Source of the DNA: Candidatus Omnitrophota bacterium | Lineage (GTDB): Bacteria > Omnitrophota > Gorgyraeia > Gygaellales > Profunditerraquicolaceae | Length of the DNA: 64,000 nt | NCBI GenBank assembly: GCA_030650425.1 | Contig: JAUSED010000003.1 | Location: 199,903 to 263,902 of the forward strand | Direction of reading: 5' to 3' | Shown here: one piece after another, positions 4,207-51,726 of the stretch | Layout of the letters: every line of letters starts with the position of its first letter | Numbering within the stretch: the stretch's first letter is position 1 | Notes under the pieces: generated by a model | The model's database searches: none | Told to the model about the DNA's origin: nothing | What the model saw: the letters and a program-made list of their open reading frames with translations, nothing else | Position numbers and translations under genes: made by a program

Positions 4207-5284
<1,078 letters not shown>

Positions 5285-7095: not shown

Positions 7096-9120
7096 ATGGC
7101 GCGTAAAATACTTTTCATTACCCTCAGCAATATCGGCGATTGTCTACTCACTCTGCCGGTATTGGATAGCCTGCGGCAAAAATTCCCTGAAGCGCGAATT
7201 ACGGTCATCGCTGGGCCGCGGACAAAAGGAGTATTCGCGGGCAATCCTGATATCCACAAATTTATCACCTATGATAAACGCGCCAGCCTTAAAGAAAAAA
7301 TAAATTTATTCGTTTCTTTATGGAAAGAGAGCTTCGACGTAGTAGTTGATTTACGCAATAGCTTATTCGGAGTATTTCTTCCGGCCAAGTATAAAACTTC
7401 ACCTTTTTTGAAGATACCCAAGCGCGTCAAACATATGAAGGATAGGCATCTCTATAAGATAAAGGGTATATTCAAAATTAAGGACGCGCCTATTTTACCC
7501 GTAGCATTATATCCCAGCTTAACGGATAAAGAGAAGATTAATCAAATATTAAAAGAGAATAAAATCAATAGCGAAGATAAGTTAATCGTAGTTGCTGCCG
7601 GAGCGCGCAGCCACACGAAGCGCTGGCCCAGAGAGAGATTCATAGAATTGATCGCGAAGTTGATCCAAGAGTTGCCGGTAAAAATTATTTTGGTGGGAGA
7701 TCGGGAAGATAGGGAGGGTAATCAATATATCGCCCAACAGGTAAGGGTCCCACTAGTGGATTTGAGCGCCAGGACTTCACTCAATGAGTTGAGCTATCTT
7801 TTAAAAAAGGCGAGCCTCTTGATTAGTAATGACAGCGCGACTTTACATCTTGCCGGCTACCTGAATATTCCGGTAGTCGCTGTATTCGGAATAACTGATG
7901 ACGCCAAATACGGGCCATGGTCAGAAGGGTCTTTGGTAGCGAAAAAAGAAATATCCTGCCGGCCCTGTCAAGAGGCGCAATGTGAATTCGGGACTTTGGA
8001 ATGTATCACGTTGGTAAAAGTAGAGGATGTCTTTAGGCTAGTGAAAGATATATTGCTTAGTGAAGACAGAAGACAGAAGGCAGAAGACAGAAAAGAGTTT
8101 AAGCGGATACTGGTCGTACGTACCGACAGGATCGGCGATGTGCTTTTATCCACGCCGGTAATCAAGGCCTTAAGAGACAGTTATCCGCACGCCTTTATCG
8201 CGATGATGGTTTCTCCGTATGCTAAAGATATAGTCGAAGGTAATCCTTATTTGGATAAAGTAATCATTTTGGATAAGGACGGAGAACATAAAAATTGGCT
8301 GCGCTCGGTTAAATTAATCCGGAAATTAAAGAAGATGAAATTTGATTTGGCGCTCGTTTTACATCCGACTAACCGCGCGCACTTATTAACTTTTCTTAGC
8401 GCTATACCCAAAAGAGTCGGTTATGACCGTAAACTGGGATTCTTGCTTAGCGATAGGATTAAACATACCAAGCAGTTTGGAGAAAAACACGAGCTGGATT
8501 ATAACTTGGACTTATTAAGGTATTTAGGCGTCGAAATAAAAGATAAAAATTTATTTATACCGGTTAAGCCTGAAGCTGAAAAGTGGGTAGAGGAATTATT
8601 CAGGCAGGAAGGAATAAGTAGTTCAGATAAGCTATTGGCGCTTAACCCTAGCGCCAGCTGCCCGTCGAAAATCTGGCCGGCTGAGCGCTTTGCCCAAACA
8701 GCGGATAAGTTAACCCAAAAATACGGATTTAAGATCATAGTGATTAGCGGGCCAAAAGACATCAGGCTTGCCGATAATTTAGTTAAAAATATGCGCTCGA
8801 GGGCAATTAATCTGGCGGCAAAGACCTCCGTAACGCAATTGGCCAGCTTATTAAAAAGATGCAGCCTATTTATTTCCAATGATTCCGGCCCGGTGCATAT
8901 TGCTTCAGCTGTGGGCACGCCGGTGATTTCCATTTTTGGCAGGAATCAGGCAGGTTTGGGCCCGAAACGTTGGGGGCCGGTGGGAGAGCGGGATAAACTC
9001 CTGCATAAAGCTGCCTGCATAGAATGCCTGGCGCACAATTGCCAAAAACAATTCACTTGCCTTAAGGCAATTAGTGTTGAGGATGTGGTCTTGGCCGCGG
9101 ACGCAATTTTACAAAATTAA
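7096..9120 (+). CDS. tandem double GT9 heptosyltransferase-like protein (two complete GT9 modules in one polypeptide)
   Basis: Module 1 has ILFITLSNIGDCLLTLPVLDSLRQKFP ... SNDSATLHLAGYLNIPVVAVFG. Module 2 has ILVVRTDRIGDVLLSTPVIKALRDSYP ... SNDSGPVHIASAVGTPVISIFG. The linker EDRRQKAEDRKEF is encoded by a GACAGA-type repeat. Confidence 0.7.
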   Translation: MARKILFITLSNIGDCLLTLPVLDSLRQKFPEARITVIAGPRTKGVFAGNPDIHKFITYDKRASLKEKINLFVSLWKESFDVVVDLRNSLFGVFLPAKYKTSPFLKIPKRVKHMKDRHLYKIKGIFKIKDAPILPVALYPSLTDKEKINQILKENKINSEDKLIVVAAGARSHTKRWPRERFIELIAKLIQELPVKIILVGDREDREGNQYIAQQVRVPLVDLSARTSLNELSYLLKKASLLISNDSATLHLAGYLNIPVVAVFGITDDAKYGPWSEGSLVAKKEISCRPCQEAQCEFGTLECITLVKVEDVFRLVKDILLSEDRRQKAEDRKEFKRILVVRTDRIGDVLLSTPVIKALRDSYPHAFIAMMVSPYAKDIVEGNPYLDKVIILDKDGEHKNWLRSVKLIRKLKKMKFDLALVLHPTNRAHLLTFLSAIPKRVGYDRKLGFLLSDRIKHTKQFGEKHELDYNLDLLRYLGVEIKDKNLFIPVKPEAEKWVEELFRQEGISSSDKLLALNPSASCPSKIWPAERFAQTADKLTQKYGFKIIVISGPKDIRLADNLVKNMRSRAINLAAKTSVTQLASLLKRCSLFISNDSGPVHIASAVGTPVISIFGRNQAGLGPKRWGPVGERDKLLHKAACIECLAHNCQKQFTCLKAISVEDVVLAADAILQN

Positions 9121-10132: not shown

Positions 10133-11142
10133 AAAATTTAAAAGAAATAGTGCGCAGGCTGAACAAGGCAAGAATTCTGGTCATCGGCGATCTTATCCTT
10201 GATGAATATATCTGGGGAAAAGTAGAGAGGATTTCGCCTGAGGCGCCAGTTCCGGTGGTTTGGGCGAATAAACGCACACATGTTCCGGGAGGAGCGGCCA
10301 ACGTAGCCAATAATATCCGTTCTTTTGGCGCCGAGGTCTATTTAGCCGGCGTTACCGGAGGCGATGCCAACGCCAAAATCCTGCTCGCGGAATTGAAGAA
10401 AAATAAAATAAATACCGAAGGCATCTTCGTTGAGCCACAGAGGTATACTACGGTGAAGACTCGAATTATCGCCGGGCATCAACAAGTGGTGCGCGTAGAT
10501 TGGGAGCATACCGAGCCGTTGATTAAGACAACAACGCAGAGGATCTTTAATTTCATTAAGGATAATATCGATAATTTTGACGCCATCATCATCGAAGATT
10601 ACGGAAAAGGGGTAATCAACGCCCAAGTTTTAGCAGGTTTGATTTTACTGGCTCAGGCGCATAAGAAAATCGTCACCGTCGACCCGAAAGAAGACCATTT
10701 CCAATATTACCGTCAGGTGACCTCGATTACTCCTAACCGCAAAGAATTGGAGAACGCGGTGAGAAATCTAAAGATTAAGGACAAAAAGAATAGATTAAAG
10801 CTGGAGAGCGATAAATTATTTACCGATAAGGATATTGACGCCGCGGGAAAACAGATATTGGAATATTTAGGGCTTGAGTCACTCTTAGTTACTTTAGGGG
10901 AACAAGGGATGAAGCTGTTTGAAAAGAATGGGGCGATCACGCATATCCCCACGGTGGCCCAAGAGGTCTTTGATGTATCCGGAGCAGGGGACACGGTAAT
11001 TTCGACTTTTACTCTCGGTTTATGCGGCGGGGCAAGCAGGCTAGAAGCTGCCCATATCGCTAATTACGCCGCCGGTATTGTCGTAGGCAAGATTGGCACA
11101 GCCACGACTACCCGGGAAGAACTTTTAAAAAGGTTAGGTTAA
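10129..11142 (+). CDS. hldE: D-glycero-beta-D-manno-heptose-7-phosphate kinase (HldE domain I / RfaE1, PfkB family)
   Basis: ILVIGDLILDEYIWGKVERISPEAPVPV is diagnostic of RfaE domain I. The C-terminal DVSGAGDTVISTF matches the PfkB motif. No adenylyltransferase domain is fused. Confidence 0.75.
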   Translation: MKNLKEIVRRLNKARILVIGDLILDEYIWGKVERISPEAPVPVVWANKRTHVPGGAANVANNIRSFGAEVYLAGVTGGDANAKILLAELKKNKINTEGIFVEPQRYTTVKTRIIAGHQQVVRVDWEHTEPLIKTTTQRIFNFIKDNIDNFDAIIIEDYGKGVINAQVLAGLILLAQAHKKIVTVDPKEDHFQYYRQVTSITPNRKELENAVRNLKIKDKKNRLKLESDKLFTDKDIDAAGKQILEYLGLESLLVTLGEQGMKLFEKNGAITHIPTVAQEVFDVSGAGDTVISTFTLGLCGGASRLEAAHIANYAAGIVVGKIGTATTTREELLKRLG

Positions 11143-32024: not shown

Positions 32025-33098
32025 ATGCGGATTAAGAGAAGAAAATCAAGGGTGGTAAAAATAGGCAGGGTTGCAATCGGAGGAAGCCATCCGGTGGCTA
32101 TCCAGTCGATGGTCAAATATAAGACTTCTGATCTTGACCGGGTCAAGCGGCAAATCCGGGAATTGGAAGGCGCTGGCTGCGAGATCGTGCGGCTGGCAAT
32201 TAAAGATACGCAGGATGCCCGCGCGTTAAAAAAGATTAAAAAAGAGGTAAAAATTCCGGTCGTCGCGGATATCCACTTTGATTACCGTCTGGCGCTTGAA
32301 GCAATCGATAGCGGGGTGGATAAGATCAGGCTTAACCCGGGGAATATTTATAAAAAAGAAGAGATCAGGGAAGTGGTCGCCGGGCTTAAAGCGGCAAAAA
32401 TCCCGTTAAGGATCGGGTTAAATTCAGGTTCAGTAAAAGAGGCGCGCTCTAAAAATATGCCGGATAGGTTGGTCGAGAGCGCGCTTAGTTACCTAAAAAT
32501 AATCGAAGGTTTTAAATTCCGCGATATAGTCGTATCTTTAAAAGCCTCGAATGTTTTGGATACGGTGAGCGCTTATCAAAAACTTGCCCGGCTTTGTGAT
32601 TATCCTCTGCACCTGGGAGTTACGGCTACAGGGTCGCCTTTTAGCGGCGCGATAAAGTCAAGTATCGCTTTAGGGGCTTTACTATTAGAGGGGATTGGTG
32701 ATACAATAAGGGTATCCCTGACAGATACTCCTGCCAGGGAAGTTTATAGCGCCAAAGTTATTTTAGAGTCGCTGTATTTACGTAAGTTCGGGCATACTTT
32801 GATCAGTTGCCCTACCTGCGGCCGCTGCGAAGTGGATTTAGTAAAATTAGTGAGAGAATTGGAAGATAAACTTCAGATGCCAAGCTTCAAGCTTCAAGCT
32901 AGGCCGCTGCAAGTGGCCGTGATGGGCTGCGTAGTCAATGGCCCGGGTGAAGCTAAGGAAGCTGATATCGGCATAGCCTTTGGCAGAAACGAAGGCCTTT
33001 TATTTAAAGGTGGGAAACCTGTAAGAAAGGTTCCTTTTGATAAGTGCGTAGGTGTGTTGATAGAAGAAATATCGAAGAGGACAGAGGATAGAGGATAG
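32025..33098 (+). CDS. ispG: 4-hydroxy-3-methylbut-2-en-1-yl diphosphate synthase
   Basis: VKIGRVAIGGSHPVAIQSM; C-terminal CPTCGRC plus GCVVNGPGE. Confidence 0.9.
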   Translation: MRIKRRKSRVVKIGRVAIGGSHPVAIQSMVKYKTSDLDRVKRQIRELEGAGCEIVRLAIKDTQDARALKKIKKEVKIPVVADIHFDYRLALEAIDSGVDKIRLNPGNIYKKEEIREVVAGLKAAKIPLRIGLNSGSVKEARSKNMPDRLVESALSYLKIIEGFKFRDIVVSLKASNVLDTVSAYQKLARLCDYPLHLGVTATGSPFSGAIKSSIALGALLLEGIGDTIRVSLTDTPAREVYSAKVILESLYLRKFGHTLISCPTCGRCEVDLVKLVRELEDKLQMPSFKLQARPLQVAVMGCVVNGPGEAKEADIGIAFGRNEGLLFKGGKPVRKVPFDKCVGVLIEEISKRTEDRG

Positions 33099-33099
33099 A

Positions 33100-33141
33100 G
33101 GACAGAATAAGATTTTTCTGTTATCTGTATTCTGTTTTCTT
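33100..33141 (+). terminator. candidate rho-independent terminator after ispG (ACAGAATA ... TATTCTGT + TTTCTT)
   Basis: Inverted repeat 33102-33109/33128-33135 followed by a T-run; embedded in (GGATAGA/GGACAGA)n repeat. Confidence 0.45.
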
Positions 33142-41504: not shown

Positions 41505-42624
41505 CAAACTATCCATTATAACATTGACTTGTCTGCTTGTGATTAGTATCTTTAGCCCTACTTATGCCTCCGAGACCGTGCGTATAGCGATTATCCAAGA
41601 CACTTCATCCCTAAGCCTTAAGATTAAAGGTTTCTTCCAAATCAGGGATTTAGAAAAGCATAAAATCATCTACCACGCTAAAAGCATCGAGACAACCGTA
41701 ACCACCTATAAAAGCGGGATTGTTATCGGAGGGATTAAACCGGCTTCAGATAAGCTCTTGATTGAGTCAGATGACCCTGAGGCCTTCCTGATTAATGGCA
41801 AGTCCTTCCGGGGGAATATCCAACTAATCAAGAAGAGCAATAATAAACTATTGGTGATTAATTGTATTGAGCTTGAGGATTATATTAAGGGAATTCTGTA
41901 TCATGAATCTTCGCATTATTGGCCGATGGAGGCTTTAAAGGCGCAGGCGATTATCTCGCGTACTTACGCGCTTTATCAAATGCAGGAAAATAGGCGTAAA
42001 GATTTTGATCTGACCAGCGACATTTATTCTCAGGTTTATGGAGGAGAAGCTTCTGAGCGTTTTCGCACGAACAAGGCAGTGGATGAGACGCAAGGTAAAG
42101 CTCTCTTTTTTAAGGGAAAGATCATCCCGGCTTATTTTCACGCCACCTGCGGCGGGCATACGGAAGACGCGGCTCTCCTTTGGAATATCGATTTAGCGCC
42201 TTTAAAAGGAGTAGTCTGCCCTTATTGCAAAGAATCACCGCATTTTAACTGGCATTATGATTTTGGGCTAAAGGATATAGAAAAGAAGTTATCCGCTAAA
42301 GGATTTAAGCTAAAAAATATAACTAATCTAGGGATAGAAGGAAAAGATGCTTCGGGAAGGATTACTAATCTCATCATTAATTCAGAGCAGGGAGAAACTA
42401 AAGTCTCGGCTAAAGATTTTCGCGAGACGATCGGCCCAAATCTTATCCGGAGCACTAATTTTTCCGTGGCCATAGAGGGAAAAGACGCGGTTTTTGAAGG
42501 GATTGGCTGGGGACATGGCGTGGGGCTTTGCCAGTGGGGCGCCTATTTTATGGCTAAGGATGGCAAGAGCGCCGAAGAGATCTTAAAATATTACTATCCG
42601 GGGACAAATGTTAAAACTTTCTAA
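41497..42624 (+). CDS. SpoIID/LytB-domain protein (cell-wall amidase enhancer family)
   Basis: Signal peptide; YFHATCGGHTEDA motif. Confidence 0.7.
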   Translation: MNNKLSIITLTCLLVISIFSPTYASETVRIAIIQDTSSLSLKIKGFFQIRDLEKHKIIYHAKSIETTVTTYKSGIVIGGIKPASDKLLIESDDPEAFLINGKSFRGNIQLIKKSNNKLLVINCIELEDYIKGILYHESSHYWPMEALKAQAIISRTYALYQMQENRRKDFDLTSDIYSQVYGGEASERFRTNKAVDETQGKALFFKGKIIPAYFHATCGGHTEDAALLWNIDLAPLKGVVCPYCKESPHFNWHYDFGLKDIEKKLSAKGFKLKNITNLGIEGKDASGRITNLIINSEQGETKVSAKDFRETIGPNLIRSTNFSVAIEGKDAVFEGIGWGHGVGLCQWGAYFMAKDGKSAEEILKYYYPGTNVKTF

Positions 42625-43600
42625 TTTCGATTATCCCTTACCTAAAGAATTAATCGCCCAATATCCGCTTAAGGAGAGGGAGAGCGCGCGGCTGCTGGTG
42701 GTTAATCGGAGCGATAATTCAATCGAGCATAAAATATTTAAAGATCTAACGGGTTACCTTAAACAAAGCGATCTTTTAGTTCTAAATGATACCAAGGTGC
42801 TTACCTGCCGCTTGATGGGCCATAAGGCTACTGGCGGAAAAGTCGAGATTTTATTAACGAAACGTAAGAGCGGCTCTACTTTTGACGCGCTGATCCAGCC
42901 TAGCCGTACCAAAATCGGCGAAAAGATTTTTTTCGGTAAAAATGAAATCGCGGGAGTGGTCACTAACCGCAAAGAGATTACTTTTCAGCCAAAAGATGCT
43001 GATAGAATCTATGGGTTTGGAGAGGTTCCGCTTCCGCCTTATATAAAAAGAGAGCCTGAAGAGCTGGATAAAGAATATTATCAGACGGTTTATGCGGATA
43101 GGGAAGGCGCTATCGCTTCTCCGACCGCGGGCCTGCATTTTACCAAGGATTTATTAAAGCAAATAGAAGCGCAAGGGGTAAATATCGCGCATTTAACTTT
43201 GCATGTCGGCTTGGGCACATTTAAGCCGGTCATCACTGATGATATTACTGAGCATCAGATGGAGCCGGAGACTTTTCAGGTTTCCAAAAGCGCGCAGGAG
43301 AAGATAGAAGCAGCGCGCAAGAACAAATCGCGGATCATTGCCGTAGGGACAACGTCGCTGAGGGCATTAGAGGCTTATGCCGCAGGCGCCAAAGAAGGCC
43401 AGACTAATCTGTTTATTTACCCGGGTTATAAATTTAAGCTGGTCAATTGCCTGCTGACGAATTTCCATCTGCCCAAGACCACGCTTTTTATGCTCGTCTG
43501 CGCCTTTGGCGGAGAGAAATTAATCAAACAAGCGTATCAGGAAGCACTGGATAAGAAATACCGATTTTACAGCTACGGCGACGCAATGTTGATAATTTAA
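42608..43600 (+). CDS. queA: S-adenosylmethionine:tRNA ribosyltransferase-isomerase
   Basis: LSNFDYPLPKELIAQYPLKERESARLLVV; C-terminal NFHLPKTTLFMLV. Confidence 0.9.
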   Translation: MLKLSNFDYPLPKELIAQYPLKERESARLLVVNRSDNSIEHKIFKDLTGYLKQSDLLVLNDTKVLTCRLMGHKATGGKVEILLTKRKSGSTFDALIQPSRTKIGEKIFFGKNEIAGVVTNRKEITFQPKDADRIYGFGEVPLPPYIKREPEELDKEYYQTVYADREGAIASPTAGLHFTKDLLKQIEAQGVNIAHLTLHVGLGTFKPVITDDITEHQMEPETFQVSKSAQEKIEAARKNKSRIIAVGTTSLRALEAYAAGAKEGQTNLFIYPGYKFKLVNCLLTNFHLPKTTLFMLVCAFGGEKLIKQAYQEALDKKYRFYSYGDAMLII

Positions 43601-43608
43601 CACACCGA

Positions 43609-43663
43609 AAGGGACAGTTTCCGCAGATGGCTATTGCGAAGCTTGGACAGGAAACTGTCCCTT
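43609..43663. repeat. 14-bp perfect inverted repeat AAGGGACAGTTTCC...GGAAACTGTCCCTT enclosing a 27-nt loop, at the left edge of the accessory island
   Basis: Seen directly, 9 nt after the queA stop. Confidence 0.5.
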
Positions 43664-43867
43664 GGGGTCATTTGCTCTAATTGCTCTTTCATGCACCTGT
43701 CAATTTTCTCGCTCAGCACGATTTTTTAACGCCAATGATCTTTCAATGCTCAAGCTCCATTGGCTAAAATCGTGATTCGCTCGAAACTTGCCAGGTTCAT
43801 TTATAAGAATAGGGATCTAGTTTCTCTTTCCAAAAGTAAAGTAAGCAGGTCTAAGAAAGCAGGGCAA

Positions 43868-44206
43868 ATGGTGAAATATATGCCAGATCCAAATACTATA
43901 ATGGCAATGACATCAGTTTTTATGCTTGTTATTGTAGGAATCCAGGTATGGATTTCTATAAAACAAAACAAATTATTAGAAATGCAGTCGAGAATATCCA
44001 AAGCTTCAACTGTAAGTGCTATTTTTAATTTGATACAGGAATCAGATAAGATGTTATTAGATAATATAACTGTAATAGAAAAATATAGAGATGAAAAGGG
44101 TATGCCTAAAGAATTAGCTTTGGCAATGGTAACCGAATTTAAGAAATGCCGTGATGAGAGCGTAAAGAAACACAAAGAGATGCTTGAGGTGTTAGGAGAA
44201 AAATAG
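43868..44206 (+). CDS. hypothetical small membrane-anchored protein
   Basis: Start chosen at ATG 43868 (MVKYMPDPNTIMAMTSVFMLVIVGIQVWI, one TM) rather than the track's 43760. AT-rich, Lys-rich. Confidence 0.35.
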   Translation: MVKYMPDPNTIMAMTSVFMLVIVGIQVWISIKQNKLLEMQSRISKASTVSAIFNLIQESDKMLLDNITVIEKYRDEKGMPKELALAMVTEFKKCRDESVKKHKEMLEVLGEK

Positions 44207-44248
44207 AAGACATGCCTATGGGGCTTTATGCAAGCACTTTTTTGGCAC

Positions 44249-44279
44249 AAAATAGTAGATTATTATAATCTACTATTTT
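44249..44279 (+). terminator. AT-rich near-perfect palindrome AAAATAGTAGATTAT|TATAATCTACTATTTT after the 44206 stop
   Basis: Seen directly; followed by a T/A-rich tract. Confidence 0.35.
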
Positions 44280-44325
44280 ATTAACAAGTTAACGCGGTAA
44301 GACTTTATAAGCGGAAGAAATAACT

Positions 44326-45036
44326 ATGCAATGTGCACTTTGTCAAAATACAAAAAAACTTTGTAAATCCCATATAATTCCCGAATTCTTTTACAAAGAG
44401 TTATATGATAAAAAACATCGTTTTAAAGGAGTATATTCAATCTGGGGGAAAATCGTATTTCACTTTAAGGGATTTCGCGAACGTCTACTCTGTGAAGACT
44501 GTGAAAAAAAATTAAGTAGTTACGAAAAATACCTGAGGGACGTTCTTCTTGAACAATATCCTAAAATTATGGAACTAAAAGTCGGAGATAAGTTATATTT
44601 TAACGTCAATTATAAAAAAATCAGGCTTTGTTATCTTTCAATTCTTTGGCGTATGAGTATTGCTACTAAACGATTTTTTAAGAATTTTTCAATTCCTGAA
44701 TATGAGGGAAAACTTAAAGATTTACTTAATAGGGATGATCCCGGTAATCCTAATGAGTTTGGTTACATTGCTATAGTCCCCTTAATGAATAATTCTTTTA
44801 AAAGAGCTTGGTTTATTGATCCTCATCTGGGAAAAATGAATGGTGATGATATTTGCTTCGTTATGTTTGGGGGTATTTTATATATTTTCTTTATTACGTT
44901 TACTAATAATCCAAGGGCTGCAGAAGCATTCATACAAAGAGAAAATAAGTGGTTGATAACCGCCGTTGATGTAAAAGATACCCTTTTAGATAAATATATT
45001 AGAAATGCTCAAAAAATAATAAAAAAGTCTCAATGA
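44326..45036 (+). CDS. hypothetical protein with N-terminal Cys-rich HNH-like motif (candidate nuclease)
   Basis: C-x2-C-x8-SHIIPE ... LLCEDCEKKL resembles the zinc-ribbon/HNH arrangement (CxxC...HH(V/I)IP...LCxxCH). The remaining ~170 aa have no recognisable family. Very AT-rich. Confidence 0.45.
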   Translation: MQCALCQNTKKLCKSHIIPEFFYKELYDKKHRFKGVYSIWGKIVFHFKGFRERLLCEDCEKKLSSYEKYLRDVLLEQYPKIMELKVGDKLYFNVNYKKIRLCYLSILWRMSIATKRFFKNFSIPEYEGKLKDLLNRDDPGNPNEFGYIAIVPLMNNSFKRAWFIDPHLGKMNGDDICFVMFGGILYIFFITFTNNPRAAEAFIQRENKWLITAVDVKDTLLDKYIRNAQKIIKKSQ

Positions 45037-45075
45037 TGGGCACATTTTGAGCACAAGCTGTTCTTGAAGCATTCT

Positions 45076-45107
45076 AGGGACACGACATTTAATTCCTCGG
45101 AGAAAAG
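45076..45107 (+). repeat. intron-less paralog of the group II intron homing site (AGGGACA|CGACATTTAATTCCTCGGAGAAAAG)
   Basis: Matches the joined exons of the occupied site (…GGGGACA [intron] CGATACTTAATTCCTCGGAGAAAAG) over ~40 nt. Confidence 0.55.
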
Positions 45108-45166
45108 ATAATTAAGTAATGTGTCCCCGGAAATTCTGTGTATAGTAACCTTTACTTTCTTAACCT

Positions 45167-45649
45167 ATGTATTTCAATACTACGCTAGGAGCTAAAATAA
45201 ACAATAAGAAACCAACTAGTTTAGCTGGATTATTTTTTATTGGACTAATTTTTATAGCTGTATTTTTTATAGGAGGGAATGCTTCATTATTAACTCAAAA
45301 TATAGCTAACTGGCCTAAAGCTAAAGCCGAAGTTATTTCCGTTGAACCTGAAATCGTTTGTGAAACACCAGAAAGATCTAGCGCTTGCTACACTATATTT
45401 TTTATTAAATATTCATACAACGTAAATGGAAAAGAATACATTAACCAAATGAAACAAGAATATGTAACTAATTATATTCCTGGAAAAACATTTGATGTAC
45501 TTTATAAACAAGACAATCCTCAGCTTGTTTTTAAAAAGGATGACCTTCCCGGTAAATTCAAACTTTATCTATCCTTAATAATTGGATTGATTATCGTCAT
45601 CCCTATTATGTTTTTTTGGAAACAGAAACGAAACAGACGTGTTCCCTAA
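45167..45649 (+). CDS. DUF3592-like two-TM membrane protein
   Basis: TM1, then ...WPKAKAEVISVE...YSYNVNGKEYIN...GKTFDVLYKQDNPQ..., then TM2. This is the DUF3592 topology and motif pattern. Confidence 0.5.
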   Translation: MYFNTTLGAKINNKKPTSLAGLFFIGLIFIAVFFIGGNASLLTQNIANWPKAKAEVISVEPEIVCETPERSSACYTIFFIKYSYNVNGKEYINQMKQEYVTNYIPGKTFDVLYKQDNPQLVFKKDDLPGKFKLYLSLIIGLIIVIPIMFFWKQKRNRRVP

Positions 45650-45822
45650 CACTTAGCAATTTCAATAGTTGTAAATAAAATCTCCGCTCTTTGATAAATT
45701 AAAACTGTATTCCTTCCAGAGGGAATACATCTGCCAAATCTTCCGGCGCTAAAACCGCATCAGGCCTACGATGGAGACGGCGGAAGGGTAAAGAAGACAA
45801 CCGGCTCACCCGCTAACCCGCT

Positions 45823-45905
45823 GAAGAATTCCGTGAAGAATTCCGGGCAGAAGAATTCCCAATTCCGGGCAATTCCGCAATTCCGGCAATTCCGCAATTC
45901 AGGGG
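45823..45905. repeat. degenerate tandem array (~8 units) of AATTCCG/GAAGAATTCCG immediately 5' of the group II intron
   Basis: gaagaattccgt gaagaattccggg cagaagaattccc aattccgggc aattccgc aattccggc aattccgc aattcagggg. Confidence 0.7.
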
Positions 45906-46402
45906 ACAGTGCGCCAAGAAAGCTAATATGAACAGGCCGTAATAAACGGCACGGTCAAAGACTAACCATCAGGCCGTTACTATAGCTCTGCGTACAGCGA
46001 GGTAATAAGCTGTATGAAGCCAGAGTGAAGGAGATTGTCAACCGTAACGCAAGTGAAGGCAGTAAGTCCCGAAATGAATACGTCGCAGTGGGCTAATGGT
46101 TTGTCCCCTATGAAGCCAGCAGTATCACGCGCGTAAAGGTGAGTGCGTGATGTCCTGCCGGGATTGTAAGCCACAGTGGGCAATCAATATGTTTGTATTG
46201 GAACTTGTGAGAACCAACGTGTTTCCCATAAGTCGTCAACGAGCTTCTAAAGAAGCAAGGAGATGATAAGGCACGTTGGTAGTCGGACTAACTCATAGTA
46301 CTCAATGATATTGGGAAAGCCAATAACAAGGGGAAGGGGTTAGCAGTTAAAGTTGCACGAGGCTAAGGAAACATTGAGCGGACTCAAAGTCTGTGGAAAG
46401 CA

Positions 46403-47701
46403 ATGGAAACAAAATTAGACTCACTAAGTCAGTATGCCGCAAAAGAACCTCAGCGGAAATTCGTTAACATAATGTATCAGGTTAACGAAAGTTCTTTGAA
46501 GGCGAACTTCTATCTGCTCGGCAGGAAACGTGCAGTAGGAGTGGATGGCGTAGGTTGGCAGGAATATGGAGAAGGATTAGATGCCAACATCGATAACCTC
46601 TTGGAACGGATGAAGAGAATGGGCTATCGGCCGCAACCTGTAAGACGGGTGTATATACCTAAAGGCAGGAATGATAAAAGGCCTTTGGGTATCCCCACGG
46701 TAGAAGATAAGGTTGCGCAGAAGACAATGAGCCGGATTATGGAAGCGGTTTATGAACAAGACTTCTATGAATTCTCATACGGATTCCGTCCGGGAAAGAG
46801 TTGTCATCAGGCGCTTAAGCGAGTCGGCGAAATTATCAACTTTAAGCCAATCAACCATATTATCGAAGCGGACATCAAAGGGTTCTTCGATAACGTAGGA
46901 CACGAAAAGCTAATGGAATTGGTAAGAAGGAGAATTACCGATAAGAAATTCCTGCGTTATATCGTGCGCTTCCTGAAAGCCGGATATATTGAATCCGGTT
47001 TGTTAAAGGAAGCAAAACAAGGCACTCCGCAGGGAGGAAACTTAAGCCCGTTATTGGCTAACATATTTCTGCATTATGTGCTGGATGAATGGTTTGAAAA
47101 GGAGTTGAAACCGACTCTTGTAGGCCAGTGTTATTTGGTGAGGTATTGCGACGATTTTGTTATCTTGACGCAATATCAGCAAGAGGCAAAGACGGTAATG
47201 ACCCGGCTGCAAGAGAGATTCGAGGCATATGGCCTTGAACTCAACACGGAGAAATCAGGAGTAATAAGTTTTGGCCGCTATGAGCGGGAAAATGCCGAAA
47301 AACAGCTAAGGCGGGCAAATACTTTTGATTTCTTAGGGTTTACGCATTACTGCGCTTTGACACGTAAAGGCAAATTCAAGGTTAGTCGAAGGACAAGTGC
47401 TGAAAGATTCCGTAAGAGCCTCAGAGAAATATATCTCTGGCTCAAGGCTTTCAAGAATACGATTAGCATTAAGGAGTTATGGACACAGCTTGTAAGTAAA
47501 TTAAGAGGGCATTATCAATATTATGGTGTGAGTGAAAATCTTAGGAGGTTGCAAGAATTTTACCACCACATAGAAGATATGGCCTTTAAATTGCTCAACC
47601 GGCGGTGCGATAAGAAGTCCTTCAACTGGCGGGGATTCTGCAAATACTTGCAACGGTTTCCATTACCCAAGCCGCACATAGTATGTAACTTTTACGCATA
47701 A
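46403..47701 (+). CDS. group II intron-encoded reverse transcriptase/maturase (RT domains 0-7 + X; no En domain evident)
   Basis: RPLGIPTVEDKVAQ (RT1), FRPGKSCHQA (RT2), QGTPQGGNLSPLLANIFL (RT4), YCDDFVIL (RT5 YxDD), maturase X tail. Confidence 0.9.
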   Translation: METKLDSLSQYAAKEPQRKFVNIMYQVNESSLKANFYLLGRKRAVGVDGVGWQEYGEGLDANIDNLLERMKRMGYRPQPVRRVYIPKGRNDKRPLGIPTVEDKVAQKTMSRIMEAVYEQDFYEFSYGFRPGKSCHQALKRVGEIINFKPINHIIEADIKGFFDNVGHEKLMELVRRRITDKKFLRYIVRFLKAGYIESGLLKEAKQGTPQGGNLSPLLANIFLHYVLDEWFEKELKPTLVGQCYLVRYCDDFVILTQYQQEAKTVMTRLQERFEAYGLELNTEKSGVISFGRYERENAEKQLRRANTFDFLGFTHYCALTRKGKFKVSRRTSAERFRKSLREIYLWLKAFKNTISIKELWTQLVSKLRGHYQYYGVSENLRRLQEFYHHIEDMAFKLLNRRCDKKSFNWRGFCKYLQRFPLPKPHIVCNFYA

Positions 47702-47727
47702 CCGAATACTGATGGAAACTTACTGAA

Positions 47728-47760
47728 GAGCCGTATGCGGGAAATCCGCAAGTACGGTTC
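47728..47760 (+). ncRNA. group II intron catalytic domain V
   Basis: Canonical 33-34-nt hairpin with AGC and GAAA tetraloop. Confidence 0.8.
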
Positions 47761-47883
47761 TGTGAGGGGCTCTGAAATACGGGCCTACTCGACCGATACT
47801 TAATTCCTCGGAGAAAAGGAACGAACGGGGGGCGTCCCAAAAAGGGACACCCTTGGTTTAGCTGATGCGATGAAGAATCGTAA

Positions 47884-48300
47884 CTAATCCCTATAAAATC
47901 CTATTCTGCGCTTGGGTTTTTCCGGGGGAGCCATAAGCTGGCGGATGGCTTCAAATATCTCTTTGATCGTCTGGTTGTGTTCGGCATATCTCTTCTCAAG
48001 TGATTCAATCTTTACAGCTAATTCTTTATGCGTTAAAAGAATTAGCCTTAGTTTAGTAAAGGCCCGCATAATTAATATATTTACTTGAATGTCCCTTTCA
48101 CTATTTAGCACACTTGAGAGCATAGCCACTCCTTGTTCGGTAAAGACATAAGGTAGATATTTAATGTTTTGGCCTTGTTTCAAGGACGCAAAATGCGACC
48201 TTGAATTTAAGATCACATTTTGTGATCTTAAAGAATCCAATTCTTCATTTGTAATTTGAAACATGAAATCATGGTGAAAAGCGGTATTAGTTCTTTCATT
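47884..48300 (-). pseudogene. 5'-truncated ORF6N-domain gene remnant
   Basis: FQITNEELDSLRSQNV...YLPYVFTEQGVAMLSSVLNSERDIQVNILIMRAF matches the ORF6N core. Homology (..FHHDFMFQ..) continues upstream of the ATG to an in-frame stop at 48301-48303. The usual first ~40 aa of the domain are absent. Confidence 0.6.
48210..48228. repeat. palindrome P1 AGATCACA-TTT-TGTGATCT (TCACA-N3-TGTGA core), inside the ORF6N remnant
   Basis: Seen directly; encodes RSQNVIL in the remnant. Confidence 0.7.
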
Positions 48301-48379
48301 TTATTCTCGTCTCTACTATAATAGACGTAAGATAAGGTAAAATCTAACAAAGAATTATTTAAATAACAAGGCAAATGCA

Positions 48380-48398
48380 ATGTTTGAACTAATTCAGC
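48380..48398 (+). repeat. orphan copy of tgt 5' end (ATGTTTGAACTAATTCAGC); 18/19 identical to tgt start at 49476-49494
   Basis: Direct comparison of the two sites. Confidence 0.8.
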
Positions 48399-48403
48399 CT
48401 AAT

Positions 48404-48430
48404 CTTGAAGTCACAAATTGTGACTTCAAG
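48404..48430. promoter_or_regulatory. palindrome P2 CTTGAAGTCACA-AAT-TGTGACTTCAAG (12-bp arms)
   Basis: Seen directly, in the intergenic region upstream of the 48531 gene. Confidence 0.5.
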
Positions 48431-48468
48431 ATTTAAAGTGAAAAATAGACGCTGAACGTATTGTTCAA

Positions 48469-48487
48469 GATCGCAATTTGTGATCTC
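48469..48487. promoter_or_regulatory. palindrome P3 AGATCGCA-ATT-TGTGATCT; near-copy of P1 including flanks (TTCAAGATC...ATCTCAAAG)
   Basis: Seen directly, ~45 nt upstream of the GTG start at 48531. Confidence 0.5.
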
Positions 48488-48530
48488 AAAGGTTATCGGA
48501 AACGCAGACACTACTCAAAGGGAGGGAAAG

Positions 48531-49001
48531 GTGAAAAAGTATATTATTTTTCTCTTATTTTTCCTGGCTTTGAATATTAACGTTTATTGCGGCCAGGAAA
48601 GCAGGATTGAGTTGACTGATGGCAGCGTGCTTAACGGAGAAGTAACTTCTTTAGCCAGCGGCACTTATACTATCAACACCGCTTCTATGGGCGTAATAAA
48701 AATTGACGCGGCAAAGGTCGCTAAAATTGAATCAGTGAAATCCTCCGCGCTTAGTTCAGCAATTAATCTTACACCGGCACAAATTAACAGCTATAAGCAA
48801 AAAATTATGGGTAATCCGGATGCAGCCGCCGCAATCAAAAGTCTATCTGCTAATCCTCAGATTAAGGCGTTAGCGGAAGATCCGGAAATTGTCAATGCCG
48901 CCAAGTCCGGGAATATCCAAGAATTGTTCAGTAACAAAAAGTTTACGGATGTTTTAGAAAGCCCTGAGATACAAGAAACAGCTAAGAAAATTAAGCAATA
49001 G
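48531..49001 (+). CDS. hypothetical secreted protein with NP/DP (STI1-like) repeats
   Basis: GTG start with ggaggg RBS; signal peptide KKYIIFLLFFLALNINVYCG; repeats NPDAAAAIK / NPQIKALAEDPEIVNAAK / SPEIQETAKK. Confidence 0.5.
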   Translation: MKKYIIFLLFFLALNINVYCGQESRIELTDGSVLNGEVTSLASGTYTINTASMGVIKIDAAKVAKIESVKSSALSSAINLTPAQINSYKQKIMGNPDAAAAIKSLSANPQIKALAEDPEIVNAAKSGNIQELFSNKKFTDVLESPEIQETAKKIKQ

Positions 49002-49015
49002 CAAGGAGAGATGTT

Positions 49016-49480
49016 ATGGGTAAGAAGATAAAGCGGATAATCGCTAAAGAAGGGTTGATCATTATCGCCATCGCGGCGATAATGTATATTTTTAAGACAT
49101 TCGTGCCCTCTTTCACGTTCCCTTATCCGAAAGTGAAATTAGCATTCCAGGATGGAACCTCGAATATTATAGAGATCTATCCGGAGATGACTACCTCTGA
49201 GCTCGCGGGTAAGATCGGCCCAAGCGGGTTGATCAAGAAATATCATTGCCCAACCCCTGAACTTATCTCCAAGCGGATCGATAAATTCATCCAGGAGAAC
49301 AAAAAGACTTCAGCGCTGGTTGATAAAAAGTGTGTGAATGAAAAACAGCTCTATCTGTATAGGGCATACTTTAATTTCCTGTTTCAACCTTTGCCTTTTA
49401 GGACATTAACTATCTATCTTTTCTTATTACTTATCCGTTTCATTGGCTGGGCGGTCAGGGTATTGAATAAAAATGTTTGA
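49016..49480 (+). CDS. hypothetical membrane protein (N- and C-terminal TM helices)
   Basis: RBS aggagag; stop overlaps the tgt ATG (ATGTTTGA). Confidence 0.45.
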   Translation: MGKKIKRIIAKEGLIIIAIAAIMYIFKTFVPSFTFPYPKVKLAFQDGTSNIIEIYPEMTTSELAGKIGPSGLIKKYHCPTPELISKRIDKFIQENKKTSALVDKKCVNEKQLYLYRAYFNFLFQPLPFRTLTIYLFLLLIRFIGWAVRVLNKNV

Positions 49481-50615
49481 ATTAATTCAGCAAGATAAAA
49501 ATAGCGGGGCGAGGCTGGGAAAGCTGACTACGGAGCATGGGGTAATCAATACGCCTTGTTTTATGCCTGTTGGGACGCACGCGACCATCAAAGGGCTTTA
49601 TCCTAAGGATGTGGAAGAGGCAGGCGCGGAAATTATGCTCTCTAATACCTATCATTTGTTCTTACGGCCGGGAATGGAGATTATCCGTAAAGCCAAGGGA
49701 TTACACAACTTTATTGCGTGGAAAAAGCCGATTCTTACGGATAGCGGTGGTTATCAGGTGTTTAGTTTAGCGCTTTTAAGGAAGCTAAGCGATAAAGGCG
49801 TGGAGTTTCAGTCGCATATCGATGGATTTAAACATTTCCTGACTCCTGAAGATGTAATCGACATACAACAGGATTTAGGCTCGGATATTATGATGCCGCT
49901 GGATGAATGTGTGCATTACCCCTGCGGAAAAGATCAGGCGGAAGTAGCGATGAAGCGCACGATCAATTGGGCTAAACGTTCGCATAAGCATCTAGAAGAG
50001 CATAAAAAGCATGGTCCAACCAAGAAGCAGCTCCTTTTTGGTATTGTGCAGGGCGCGACCTACGAAGACCTGCGTACTGAATGCGCCAAGGAATTAACCG
50101 ATATTGATTTCGATGGCTTTAGCATTGGCGGAGTTTCTGTTGGCGAACCCAGCGATTTAATCTATAATATATTATCTTTTAGCGCGAAATTACTTCCTCA
50201 GCATAAGCCGCGTTATGCTATGGGCATAGGTTATCCGCCGGATATCATCGAGGCAGTGGAGCGAGGGATTGATATGTTTGATTGTGTGGTTCCTACCCGT
50301 TACGGCAGGAATGGAACCGCTTTTACCAGTACCGGAAAGATAATTATCAGGAACGCTCCCTTTGCCGAAGATTTTAGGGCACTCGATGCTAAATGCGGCT
50401 GCTATACCTGTAAGACTTTCAGCCGGGCATACCTGCGCCATTTGTTTAACGCGCAGGAGATGCTCGGTTTGACCTTACTTTCTTTACACAATGTTTATTT
50501 CTTTTTGGATTTGGCGCGTAAGATCAGAGAGGCAATTCGGCAGGATAGGTTTAGTGACTTCAAAAAAGAATTCTTGAGTCAGTATAATAGTTTGATAGGG
50601 GACACTTTCCTTTAA
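49473..50615 (+). CDS. tgt: queuine tRNA-ribosyltransferase
   Basis: HGVINTPCFMPVGTHATIKGL; LTDSGGYQVFSL; zinc site CGCYTCKTFSRAYLRHL. Confidence 0.9.
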   Translation: MFELIQQDKNSGARLGKLTTEHGVINTPCFMPVGTHATIKGLYPKDVEEAGAEIMLSNTYHLFLRPGMEIIRKAKGLHNFIAWKKPILTDSGGYQVFSLALLRKLSDKGVEFQSHIDGFKHFLTPEDVIDIQQDLGSDIMMPLDECVHYPCGKDQAEVAMKRTINWAKRSHKHLEEHKKHGPTKKQLLFGIVQGATYEDLRTECAKELTDIDFDGFSIGGVSVGEPSDLIYNILSFSAKLLPQHKPRYAMGIGYPPDIIEAVERGIDMFDCVVPTRYGRNGTAFTSTGKIIIRNAPFAEDFRALDAKCGCYTCKTFSRAYLRHLFNAQEMLGLTLLSLHNVYFFLDLARKIREAIRQDRFSDFKKEFLSQYNSLIGDTFL

Positions 50616-50677
50616 AGTATTTCCGATAGCTTTGATGGAAAGTGTCCCCTAATAGTGAGGTTTGGATGGATTTAACT

Positions 50678-51349
50678 ATGCGTATTGATATTATCACTAT
50701 TTTCCCTAAAATGTTTGAGCCGGTGTTGAATGAGTCAATTATGCGGCGCGCGCAGGCTAAGGGTAAAGTTAAGTTCTTTATCCATGATTTACGGGATTAT
50801 ACCAGTGATAAACACCGTAAAGTGGATGACCGGGTCTTTGGCGGCGGTTCAGGTATGCTGATGCGGCCAGAACCGATTTTTAATGCCATAGCGAAATTAA
50901 AGCGTCAAGCCAAGGTAATTTTACTTTCTCCTCAAGGGAAAAAATTAGACCAGAAGATTGTCAAAAGATTATCCAAAGAGAAGAATCTCATTCTGATTTG
51001 CGGCCATTATGAAGGAGTGGATGAAAGAGTACGCGAAAAATTGGTTGATGAAGAGATTTCCATTGGAGATTATGTCTTGACCGGAGGAGAGCTGCCGGCT
51101 ATGGTTTTGGTAGATAGCCTTGTCCGGCTTATCCCGGGAGTTTTAGGGGATAAAAATTCCTTGAATTTTGAGTCATTTGAAGGTAATCTATTAGAACATC
51201 CGCATTATACCCGTCCGGCAAATTTCCGGCGGATGAAAGTTCCGGAAGTGCTGCTTTCCGGAGACCATCAAAAAATCGAAGCCTGGAGAAAGAAAGAGGC
51301 GCTCAAAAGAACCAAGCAAAGGCGCCCAGATTTATTAAACAGTAAGTAA
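50678..51349 (+). CDS. trmD: tRNA (guanine37-N1)-methyltransferase
   Basis: [15 protein letters not shown] is the canonical TrmD start; track ORF begins 36 nt earlier. [10 protein letters not shown]; [14 protein letters not shown]. Confidence 0.85.
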
Positions 51350-51369
51350 GAGAGGAGAAACAAACACAC

Positions 51370-51726
51370 ATGGATAAAATGAAACTCATTGAGTCACAAT
51401 TTGTGAAAAAAGACGTACCGGAGTTTGGGGTCGGAGATACGGTCAAGGTGATGACTAGAATCCCCGAGGGCCCGGATAAGTTCCGCCTGCATCCTTTTGA
51501 GGGAGTAGTTATTGCTAAAGAAGGTTCCGGGGCAAGGGAACATTTTACGGTGAGAAAAATTTCTTACGGAGAGGGGATTGAACGCGTATTCCCGCTTTAT
51601 TCTCCGAGTATTGAGCGCATTGAACTTATCCACTCAGGAAAAGTAAGAAGGGCTAAGCTTTATTATTTAAGAGGTAAAGTTGGCAAGCGCGCCACCAAAA
51701 TCGAAAGCAAGCAAGAGAAGAAATAG
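51370..51726 (+). CDS. rplS: 50S ribosomal protein L19
   Basis: [21 protein letters not shown]...[16 protein letters not shown]. Confidence 0.9.

Follow-up and report, generated by a model that had tools for sequence, protein, structure and literature searches.

Why does a close match to the joined exons of a group II intron lie, free of any intron, 0.8 kb upstream of that intron? The question was raised by a preliminary description of a 64-kb stretch of Candidatus Omnitrophota DNA (hereafter, the window), which had placed the intron-free copy at 45069-45107. Direct reading of the window returned the sequence exactly as it had been quoted (GCATTCTAGGGACACGACATTTAATTCCTCGGAGAAAAG), with no intron in it. 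This + strand motif (site 2), also recovered by 19-mer search and blastn, forms the left arm and loop of a larger repeat unit and lies between a 236-aa ORF (44326-45036) and a DUF3592 ORF (45167-45649). The former had been labelled 'HNH-like', a label that the searches did not back: the ORF had no matches in Pfam, NCBIfam or PADLOC and matched only PHROGs of unknown function. Site 2 is identical at 33 of 37 ungapped positions to the exons of site 1 when these are joined across the intron at 45909-47793, and a blastn search of the masked window with the joined exons recovered it (E = 7.6e-8). The 19-nt exact core of the match (TTAATTCCTCGGAGAAAAG) occurs twice in the 64 kb, even when three mismatches are allowed, versus 0.03 occurrences expected. 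The 19-mer count and the blastn E value rule out chance similarity of the two copies, one of the two outcomes that the preliminary description had named as fatal to its claim. The 3' exon motif was not carried along by the intron either, as a related genome (locus L008) has the identical 25 nt without an intron. We consider it likely that the sequence at 45069-45107 belongs to an intron-free paralogue of the intron's DNA target, contained in a palindromic unit of about 75 nt that is repeated in a gene island.

The intron at site 1 spans 1885 nt of the + strand (45909-47793) and runs from a GTGCG 5' end through D1-D4, an ORF in D4, D5 and D6 to a ..GAC end, as delimited by Rfam models and by the boundaries of relatives. 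Model RF02005 (group-II-D1D4-6) matches 45942-46173 over its full length (model positions 1-225; 98.5 bits versus a cutoff of 49), and the D5-D6 model RF00029 matches 47726-47793 (61.8 bits versus a cutoff of 40) and ends on the last intron base. The 3' end reads ..CUACUCGAC (..CTCGAC), with the bulged A of D6 located 7 nt before it. The two ends agree with the GUGYG and AY boundaries of mobile bacterial group II introns. Metagenome contigs of an 89%-identical intron break precisely at CA^GTGCG...CTCGAC^C, where the assembled repeat copies diverge. Because the Rfam boundaries and the contig breaks coincide, the joined exons read GCAATTCAGGGGACA^CGATACTTAATTCCTCGGAGAAAAG, just as the preliminary description had given them, and the pair of sites pins the exon junction as exactly as it had claimed. 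The 5' exon (45894-45908, + strand) contains the IBS2 ATTCA and the IBS1 GGGACA. The first 25 nt of the 3' exon (47794-47853, + strand) are homologous to site 2, and a profile of the repeat unit matches it at 47794-47847 (E 9e-13).

The ribozyme portion amounts to about 586 nt, and the D4 ORF (46403-47701, + strand) encodes a 432-aa RT/maturase that matches TIGR04416 (360 bits, cutoff 300) and RVT_1 (2.4e-38) and, weakly, GIIM (17.9 bits, under the cutoff of 23). Pfam and NCBIfam domain searches found no endonuclease domain in the intron-encoded protein. Its catalytic motif is YCDD rather than the usual YADD (47144-47155, residues 248-251), a variant that is invariant in the 10 aligned members (10/10), down to 56% identity. 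Class could not be assigned from relatives in the PDB, where IIC, IIA and IIB proteins all score 137-159 bits and do not discriminate. The ORF is intact and conserved among relatives, and the element is a complete group II intron with all the sequence hallmarks of the mobile bacterial type. Proteins 89-96% identical to its own occur at different loci in other metagenomes, which is consistent with an intron that can splice and retrohome.

The preliminary description had proposed modelling the EBS1, EBS2 and delta pairings of this target, and the first two could be found. In the Rfam alignment, UUUGUCCC forms the terminal loop of a D1 hairpin and contains the EBS1 UGUCCC (46102-46107, + strand), complementary to the GGGACA that makes up the final six bases of the 5' exon. 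The pairing was examined at loci fetched for comparison, whose introns encode proteins with 71-96% identity to the intron-encoded protein. Over the eight loci with a known 5' exon, 42 of 42 cells pair, versus 5-67% in slid-register controls. Furthermore, one position has changed on both sides of the helix, reading A-U in three distinct rows, U-A in three and G-U in one. Introns with the loop UGUCCC sit behind GGGACA or GGGGCA (the window, L002, L003, L302 and L304), and those with UGACCC sit behind GGGTCA (L090, L007 and L311). The EBS1 covariation is supportive rather than overwhelming, because it represents essentially one compensatory event between two clades.

A candidate EBS2, GAAU (46076-46079, + strand; UGAAU from 46075), lies in a 13-nt internal loop of D1 that is unpaired in the Rfam consensus structure. 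It is complementary to ATTC at -12 to -9, and the UGACCC clade has UUG at the EBS2 position and CAA at -11 to -9 of the 5' exon. This candidate pairing extends over just 4-5 bp and is imperfect in L304. The third interaction did not fit: a delta-delta' pairing of the IIA type would oppose the U located 5' of EBS1 to the C at +1. Because no such pairing fits, the 3' exon is presumably recognized through an interaction of the EBS3 type. At +1, the window, L002, L003, L004, L091, L093, L302 and L304 have C, and L092, L310 and L311 have G or A. An intron RNA segment complementary to TACTTAA, the consensus of occupied sites at +4 to +10, was also sought; just 5 nt (UAAGU) fit, inside a D1 stem, and the match is not credible.

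Relatives with 71-95% protein identity occupy different loci, in which the sequence to the left and right of the junction is shared. Site 1 of the window reads AATTCAGGGGACA^CGATACTTAAT (5' exon^3' exon), L002 reads AATTCCGGGGACA^CAATACTTAAT, and L302 has the same 5' exon followed by CGACACTTTAT (also given as CGACACTTTATTCC). L003 reads AATTCCGGGGGCA^CACTACTTAAC; L304 has the 5' exon GAATCCGGGGACA (also given as CCGGGGACA) and the 3' exon CACACCGTAAC; and L093, whose 5' exon falls outside the contig, has the 3' exon CAATACTTAATT. Past +11 the flanks of the relatives are unrelated to the window, except at L302, which continues TTCCTGAGAC. At two further loci, L004 (C-GTCCA-GTGTCCCC) and L091 (C-CTATGTAG-GTGACCCC; EBS1 UGACCC), a sequence exactly complementary to IBS1 plus C lies a few nucleotides into the 3' exon. 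By our estimate, an 8-mer of this kind has a chance rate of about 7e-4 per locus. The intron lineage is thus associated with palindromes whose 5' arm ends GGGG(A/T)CA^C. Among distant relatives, 4 of 19 sites have a junction-spanning hairpin with at least 6 complementary bases, versus 7.3% of shuffled-partner controls, and some of the boundaries are uncertain, making the generality of such a hairpin only suggestive. Scans of metagenome and viral contigs with the intron protein returned solely relatives with 55% identity or less, which have other targets.

The distant relatives also displayed a feature of their own. Nine of them (L010, L012, L015, L019, L021, L024, L030, L047 and L059; 44-55% protein identity) have a 40-90-nt insertion in domain VI that ends in a Shine-Dalgarno-like AGGAG and an ATG, the latter 10 nt upstream of the 3' splice site (ATGTCTACTCGAC^exon). 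The introns of L010, L015, L019, L021 and L030 sit behind ..ATGA, and the intron ATG is in frame with long ORFs that extend into the 3' exon in L010 (at least 143 aa), L021 (at least 224), L030 (192) and L059 (328). From their sequences, these introns appear to supply a ribosome-binding site and start codon to a downstream host gene. The intron of the window has no such AGGAG/ATG insertion in domain VI. We also noted a second intron 5' end (GTGCGCCAAG) 66 nt past the intron 3' end in L303 (about 1830-1967) and immediately after it in L048, which may reflect tandem or nested introns or the wrap-around of a repeat during assembly.

Site 2 keeps on the + strand the register of the occupied sites (45071-45083), with an IBS2-like ATTC (45071-45074) at -12 to -9, the IBS1 GGGACA (45077-45082) at -6 to -1 and the IBS3 C (45083) at +1. 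The predicted insertion point thus lies between A45082 and C45083. Positions +7 to +25 are identical between sites 1 and 2 (19/19), and the differences cluster near the insertion point, at -8, -7, +4 and +6. From +1 to +6, site 2 (+) reads CGACAT versus CGATAC at the occupied site. It has T at +6, versus C in every occupied site, and at -7 and +4 it is unlike most of them. Because of these departures at +6 and, for the most part, at -7 and +4, the intron protein may reject site 2 (+). The consensus TACTTAA at +4 to +10 is matched at 5 of 7 positions by site 2 (+) (CATTTAA); occupied loci also deviate from it (CACTTTA in L302, ACCGTAA in L304).

Because the repeat unit is an imperfect palindrome, site 2 holds a further vacant target on its minus strand (GAATTTCCGGGGACA^CATTACTTAATT, 45110-45136), found by a fuzzy search and by a minus-strand blastn match at 45128-45110. 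The sequence around this junction is AATTTCCGGGGACA^CATTACTTAAT, with GGGGACA^C and with TTTC replacing ATTC. IBS1, the +1 C and TACTTAAT all fit, including the full TACTTAA (7/7), so that site 2 (-) matches the family target consensus as well as the occupied site does and better than site 2 (+). An insertion there would fall between 45122 and 45121.

The unit that contains both targets is an imperfect palindrome of about 75 nt (45063-45140), delimited by the fuzzy search for an inverse arm, a DNA fold and a sequence profile. Its left arm (about 45063-45094, ..GCATTCTAGGGACACGACATTTAATT) is followed by the loop CCTCGGAGAAAAGAT (45095-45109) and by the right arm (45110-45140, AATTAAGTAATGTGTCCCCGGAAATTC..). 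In the DNA fold (-8.1 kcal/mol, z -1.4), GGGACACG is paired to TGTGTCCC and TTTAATT to AATTAAG, and the unit profile matches 45062-45138 as well as its own reverse strand. The right arm accounts for the hairpin arm that the preliminary description had reported behind both copies: GTGTCCCC (45121-45128) at site 2 and GCGTCCC (47832-47838) at site 1 each begin 37 nt past the +1 C. At site 1 the right arm has decayed, with its A/T-rich part replaced, and GCGTCCC, which retains the 37-nt spacing, is followed in the 3' exon by a small hairpin (GGGCGTCCC-AAAAA-GGGACACCC).

What the unit is can be narrowed down by its composition and distribution. The preliminary description had proposed a small terminator-like unit of about 40 nt; the repetition stands, the size was underestimated, and the likeness to a terminator is not supported. 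A terminator scan of 43500-51500 called none at 45063-45140, the loop is long (15 nt), the 3' arm is followed by GGAAATTCTG with no T-run, and the fold is weak (z -1.4). The unit is not an integron attC site, which would have RYYYAAC and GTTRRRY core sites at the ends of an imperfect palindrome, as the AAC/GTT core pair is missing from the unit ends in site 2, L008 and the two viral palindromes described below (L100 and L101), and the search of the island ORFs did not find an integrase. With two copies in the 64-kb window, where a profile built from three copies found no others, and one related copy in the scan of species-representative genomes, the unit is too sparse in the window to be called a REP, a kind of element that is dispersed in many copies per genome and often accompanied by a RAYT transposase.

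Two other short repeats of the window touch on these arms. The motif GGGGACAC occurs five times versus 0.48 expected, with copies at 10987, 19777 (within an ORF) and 36873 outside hairpins. A near-perfect hairpin with 22-nt arms (TAGGGGACACTTTCCTTTAAAG and CTTTGATGGAAAGTGTCCCCTA; -19.1 kcal/mol, z -8.5) occupies 50596-50651 and overlaps the tgt ORF at its 3' end. At the base of this hairpin, GGGGACAC/GTGTCCCC equals the intron IBS1 plus C on both strands; the hairpin contains neither ATTC nor TACTTAA.

The claim that the intron targets a repeated unit gained support from a third copy at a syntenic place in another Omnitrophota genome. A 19-mer scan of species-representative genomes, a set outside which the source genome falls, gave two matches. 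One, in Arcticibacter, is probably due to chance, with no similarity beyond the 19-mer. The other lies in the Omnitrophota MAG contig JAPLLX010000003 (L008), which is collinear with 37.5-43.6 kb of the window up to the end of queA at 76-78% nucleotide identity. Past queA its genes are unrelated to those of the window, and the unit reappears there between two unrelated ORFs. This copy is 90% identical to site 2 over 51 nt and identical to the 3' exon of site 1 at 25 of 25 positions. At 90-100% versus about 77% identity between the genomes, the unit is better conserved than the neighbouring housekeeping genes. The L008 copy lacks IBS1 (TGGGTA in its place) and does not fold (z +0.4). Because site 2 folds weakly and L008 not at all, the palindromic structure may be irrelevant. 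A scan of viral contigs with GGGGACACNNTACTTAA yielded two intergenic, perfect palindromes that share these arms and differ in their loops: L100 (GGGACACAATACTTAATT-TTACG-inverse; fold z -7.5, profile E 2.5e-5) and L101 (AATTCTGGAGACACCATACTTAATT-16 nt-inverse; fold z -8.0, profile E 6e-4). Another viral pattern (ACTTAATT-N(3-30)-AATTAAGT) was too AT-rich to be informative, giving more than 120 matches that, apart from L100 and L101, had no GGGGACAC arms. BLAST searches of GenBank phages with the unit and with the L100 palindrome returned no match.

Both copies of the unit in the window lie within a variable gene island (43600-49473) between queA (42608-43600) and tgt (49473-50615), where GC drops to 34% at 44-46 kb; the syntenic region of JAPLLX010000003 contains no counterparts of the island genes. 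The island encodes an N-terminally truncated ORF6N protein that matches the PADLOC candidate defence family PDC-S05. An operator-like palindrome (TCACAAWWTGTGA) is present at 48213-48225, 48411-48423, 48471-48483 and 51394-51406 (six strand-matches versus 0.03 expected), and three of the four copies cluster around two gene starts, that of an ORF at 48480-49001 and the 5' end of this truncated ORF6N/anti-repressor-like gene (47884-48264, minus strand). Elsewhere in the window, three heptamer tandem arrays, (GAAGACA)n or (GAGGATA)n, are spread over 28 kb (4705-4738, 8062-8095 and 33077-33110). The GC skew is positive on the + strand in all 2-kb windows; thus, the + strand is probably the leading strand and the intron co-oriented with replication. 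Site 2 (-) would face the opposite replication orientation.

The occupied site is adjoined upstream by about eight partial tandem copies of its 5' exon (45822-45904, + strand; TRF periods 8, 12 and 17), with units such as GAAGAATTCCG, GAAGAATTCCGGGCA, CAATTCCGGGCA and CAATTCCG. A similar stutter precedes the introns of L003 (about 1300-1329, GCAATTCCTG-GAATTCCGGGGGCA) and L304 (about 2500-2528, GAATTC-GAATCCC-GAATCCGGGGACA), the latter recurring across L304-L309. The empty arms of site 2, L100 and L101 are single-copy on both strands and have no stutter. The stutter may have been left as a scar when the cDNA was completed at the 5' junction, or it may result from slippage of a self-complementary repeat.

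These features suggest how the intron could have reached one copy of the unit. Its RNA-protein particle would locate the target mainly through RNA-DNA pairing (EBS1 with GGGACA, EBS2 GAAU with ATTC, and the +1 C) and would reverse splice between the A and C of the target. Because the intron protein has no endonuclease domain, replication would then provide the primer for copying the intron into DNA. Both strands of site 2 would offer targets, the + strand with all pairing positions retained, and both are empty in this assembly. Judged by its pairing positions, site 2 would be open to invasion. Possible reasons for its vacancy include refractory bases at +4, +6 and -7, a hairpin that competes with EBS1, low mobility of the intron and precise intron loss.

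The reading of site 2 as an empty target has to be weighed against others. Site 2 could be a homologous repeat that the intron cannot use: the unit would be a host or island element (a cassette junction, recombination site or regulatory hairpin) of which the intron entered one copy, site 2 (+) would be refractory owing to the substitutions at -8/-7 and +4/+6, and the minus-strand site would have the replication orientation that is disfavoured. The clustering of the differences between sites 1 and 2 at these four positions, next to 19 of 19 identities at +7 to +25, speaks for this explanation, and the occupied sites of the TGTCCC clade that share a TACTTAA-type 3' exon all have C at +6. It also accommodates a unit that outconserves its flanking genes, even in loop sequence that the targets of relatives do not have, and an L008 copy with TGGGTA instead of IBS1. 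However, site 2 (+) retains every RNA-pairing position, L302 and L304 carry the intron despite a C at +4, and the introns of L004 and L092 sit at quite different 3' exons. We regard an unusable site 2 as unlikely. Far less probable, to the point of being remote, is that site 2 is the footprint of a precise intron loss, for example through recombination with spliced cDNA that left ligated exons. The junction at 45082/45083 looks just like ligated exons, and in this respect a vacated site and a never-occupied one are identical in sequence. Yet site 2 has none of the 5' exon stutter of the three occupied loci and keeps both palindrome arms, unlike site 1 with its decayed right arm. The missing stutter and the intact right arm speak mildly against former occupancy.

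The origin of the two copies is a related matter. They flank a single gene in direct orientation, which would be expected of attL/attR-like repeats left by site-specific integration of a DUF3592 cassette (45.1-45.9 kb) into a single unit rather than of dispersed repeats. The homology of site 1 to the other copies ends abruptly within the loop (+25/+26), the unit of L008 lies between two unrelated genes of this island, and GC is low (34%) at 44-46 kb. Against integration of this type, the island ORFs searched include no recombinase gene, the attC core motifs are absent, and the spacing between arms varies (5, 15 and 16 nt) among the palindromes of the family, unlike that of core-type recombination sites; we find it quite improbable. 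As a working view, we take the unit for a junction or hairpin element belonging to mobile gene islands, in which the intron has a safe, repeated landing site. A bolder version seems distinctly unlikely at present. In it, the palindrome would be a mobile or recombinogenic junction element that structures the variable queA-tgt island of Omnitrophota and is also found in phage-like contigs, and a dedicated lineage of endonuclease-less introns would have specialized on its 5' arm, at the inner end (GGGG[A/T]CA^C), with the 3' arm as a DNA copy of EBS1 and the stutter as a scar of cDNA integration.

With site 2 taken as an intron-free target, the locus offers three matched sites within 3 kb: one occupied, one empty and slightly divergent on the same strand, and one empty and near-perfect on the opposite strand. 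They permit testing which positions, or which replication orientation, limit endonuclease-less retrohoming in a phylum that has no genetic system. Should the palindrome prove to mark cassette junctions, or the stutter to be a scar of retrohoming, the locus would also give new insight into how sites are chosen and marked. As it stands, it is a well-documented and fairly ordinary example of known biology, a retroelement in repeated DNA, and a natural experiment rather than a surprise.

The closest functional analogues are introns that lack an endonuclease and use repeated mobile DNA for homing. One of them, RmInt1 of Sinorhizobium meliloti, is a homing-site group II intron without an endonuclease domain that resides in ISRm2011-2. 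Introns of the RmInt1 type have an RT-maturase of about 420-430 aa with no endonuclease domain in an intron of about 1.9 kb, a target defined by EBS1, EBS2 and +1 pairing, co-orientation with replication, and a repeated target of which occupied and empty copies coexist, all as in the window (PMC4615759; PMC4496777). In contrast to theirs, the repeat in the window is an intergenic palindrome of about 75 nt rather than an insertion sequence, and the RT motif is YCDD. Bacterial group II introns display three target specificities (homing sites, positions after terminators, and attC sites), and those that have no endonuclease and rely on replication-fork primers are expected to be co-oriented with replication (PMC4424553). 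Group IIC introns insert after the stem-loops of intrinsic terminators or into integron attC sites (PMC4424553; PMC1702495). The intron of the window resembles them in the lack of an endonuclease domain, the intergenic location, the inverted repeats nearby and the near-identical introns at several loci. However, IIC introns insert downstream of a hairpin and use a 3-4-nt IBS1 and no EBS2, whereas a covarying 6-nt EBS1, a candidate EBS2 and a ribozyme of about 586 nt are present here and the insertion falls inside the 5' arm, one base before its inner end (GGGGACA^C). No stem-loop ends just upstream of 45908, where the tandem stutter is found instead, and the palindrome extends across and downstream of the junction. 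Thus, the pairing potential points to recognition of the homing type, with a 6-nt EBS1 and an EBS2, rather than of the IIC type. Group II introns within short extragenic palindromic repeats are also described for Pseudomonas putida KT2440, where two of nine intron copies are associated with REPs in a genome that has 938 of them (PMC1525189). In contrast to this minority association, the target consensus of the whole intron family is here a palindrome arm, in a unit as rare as two copies in 64 kb.
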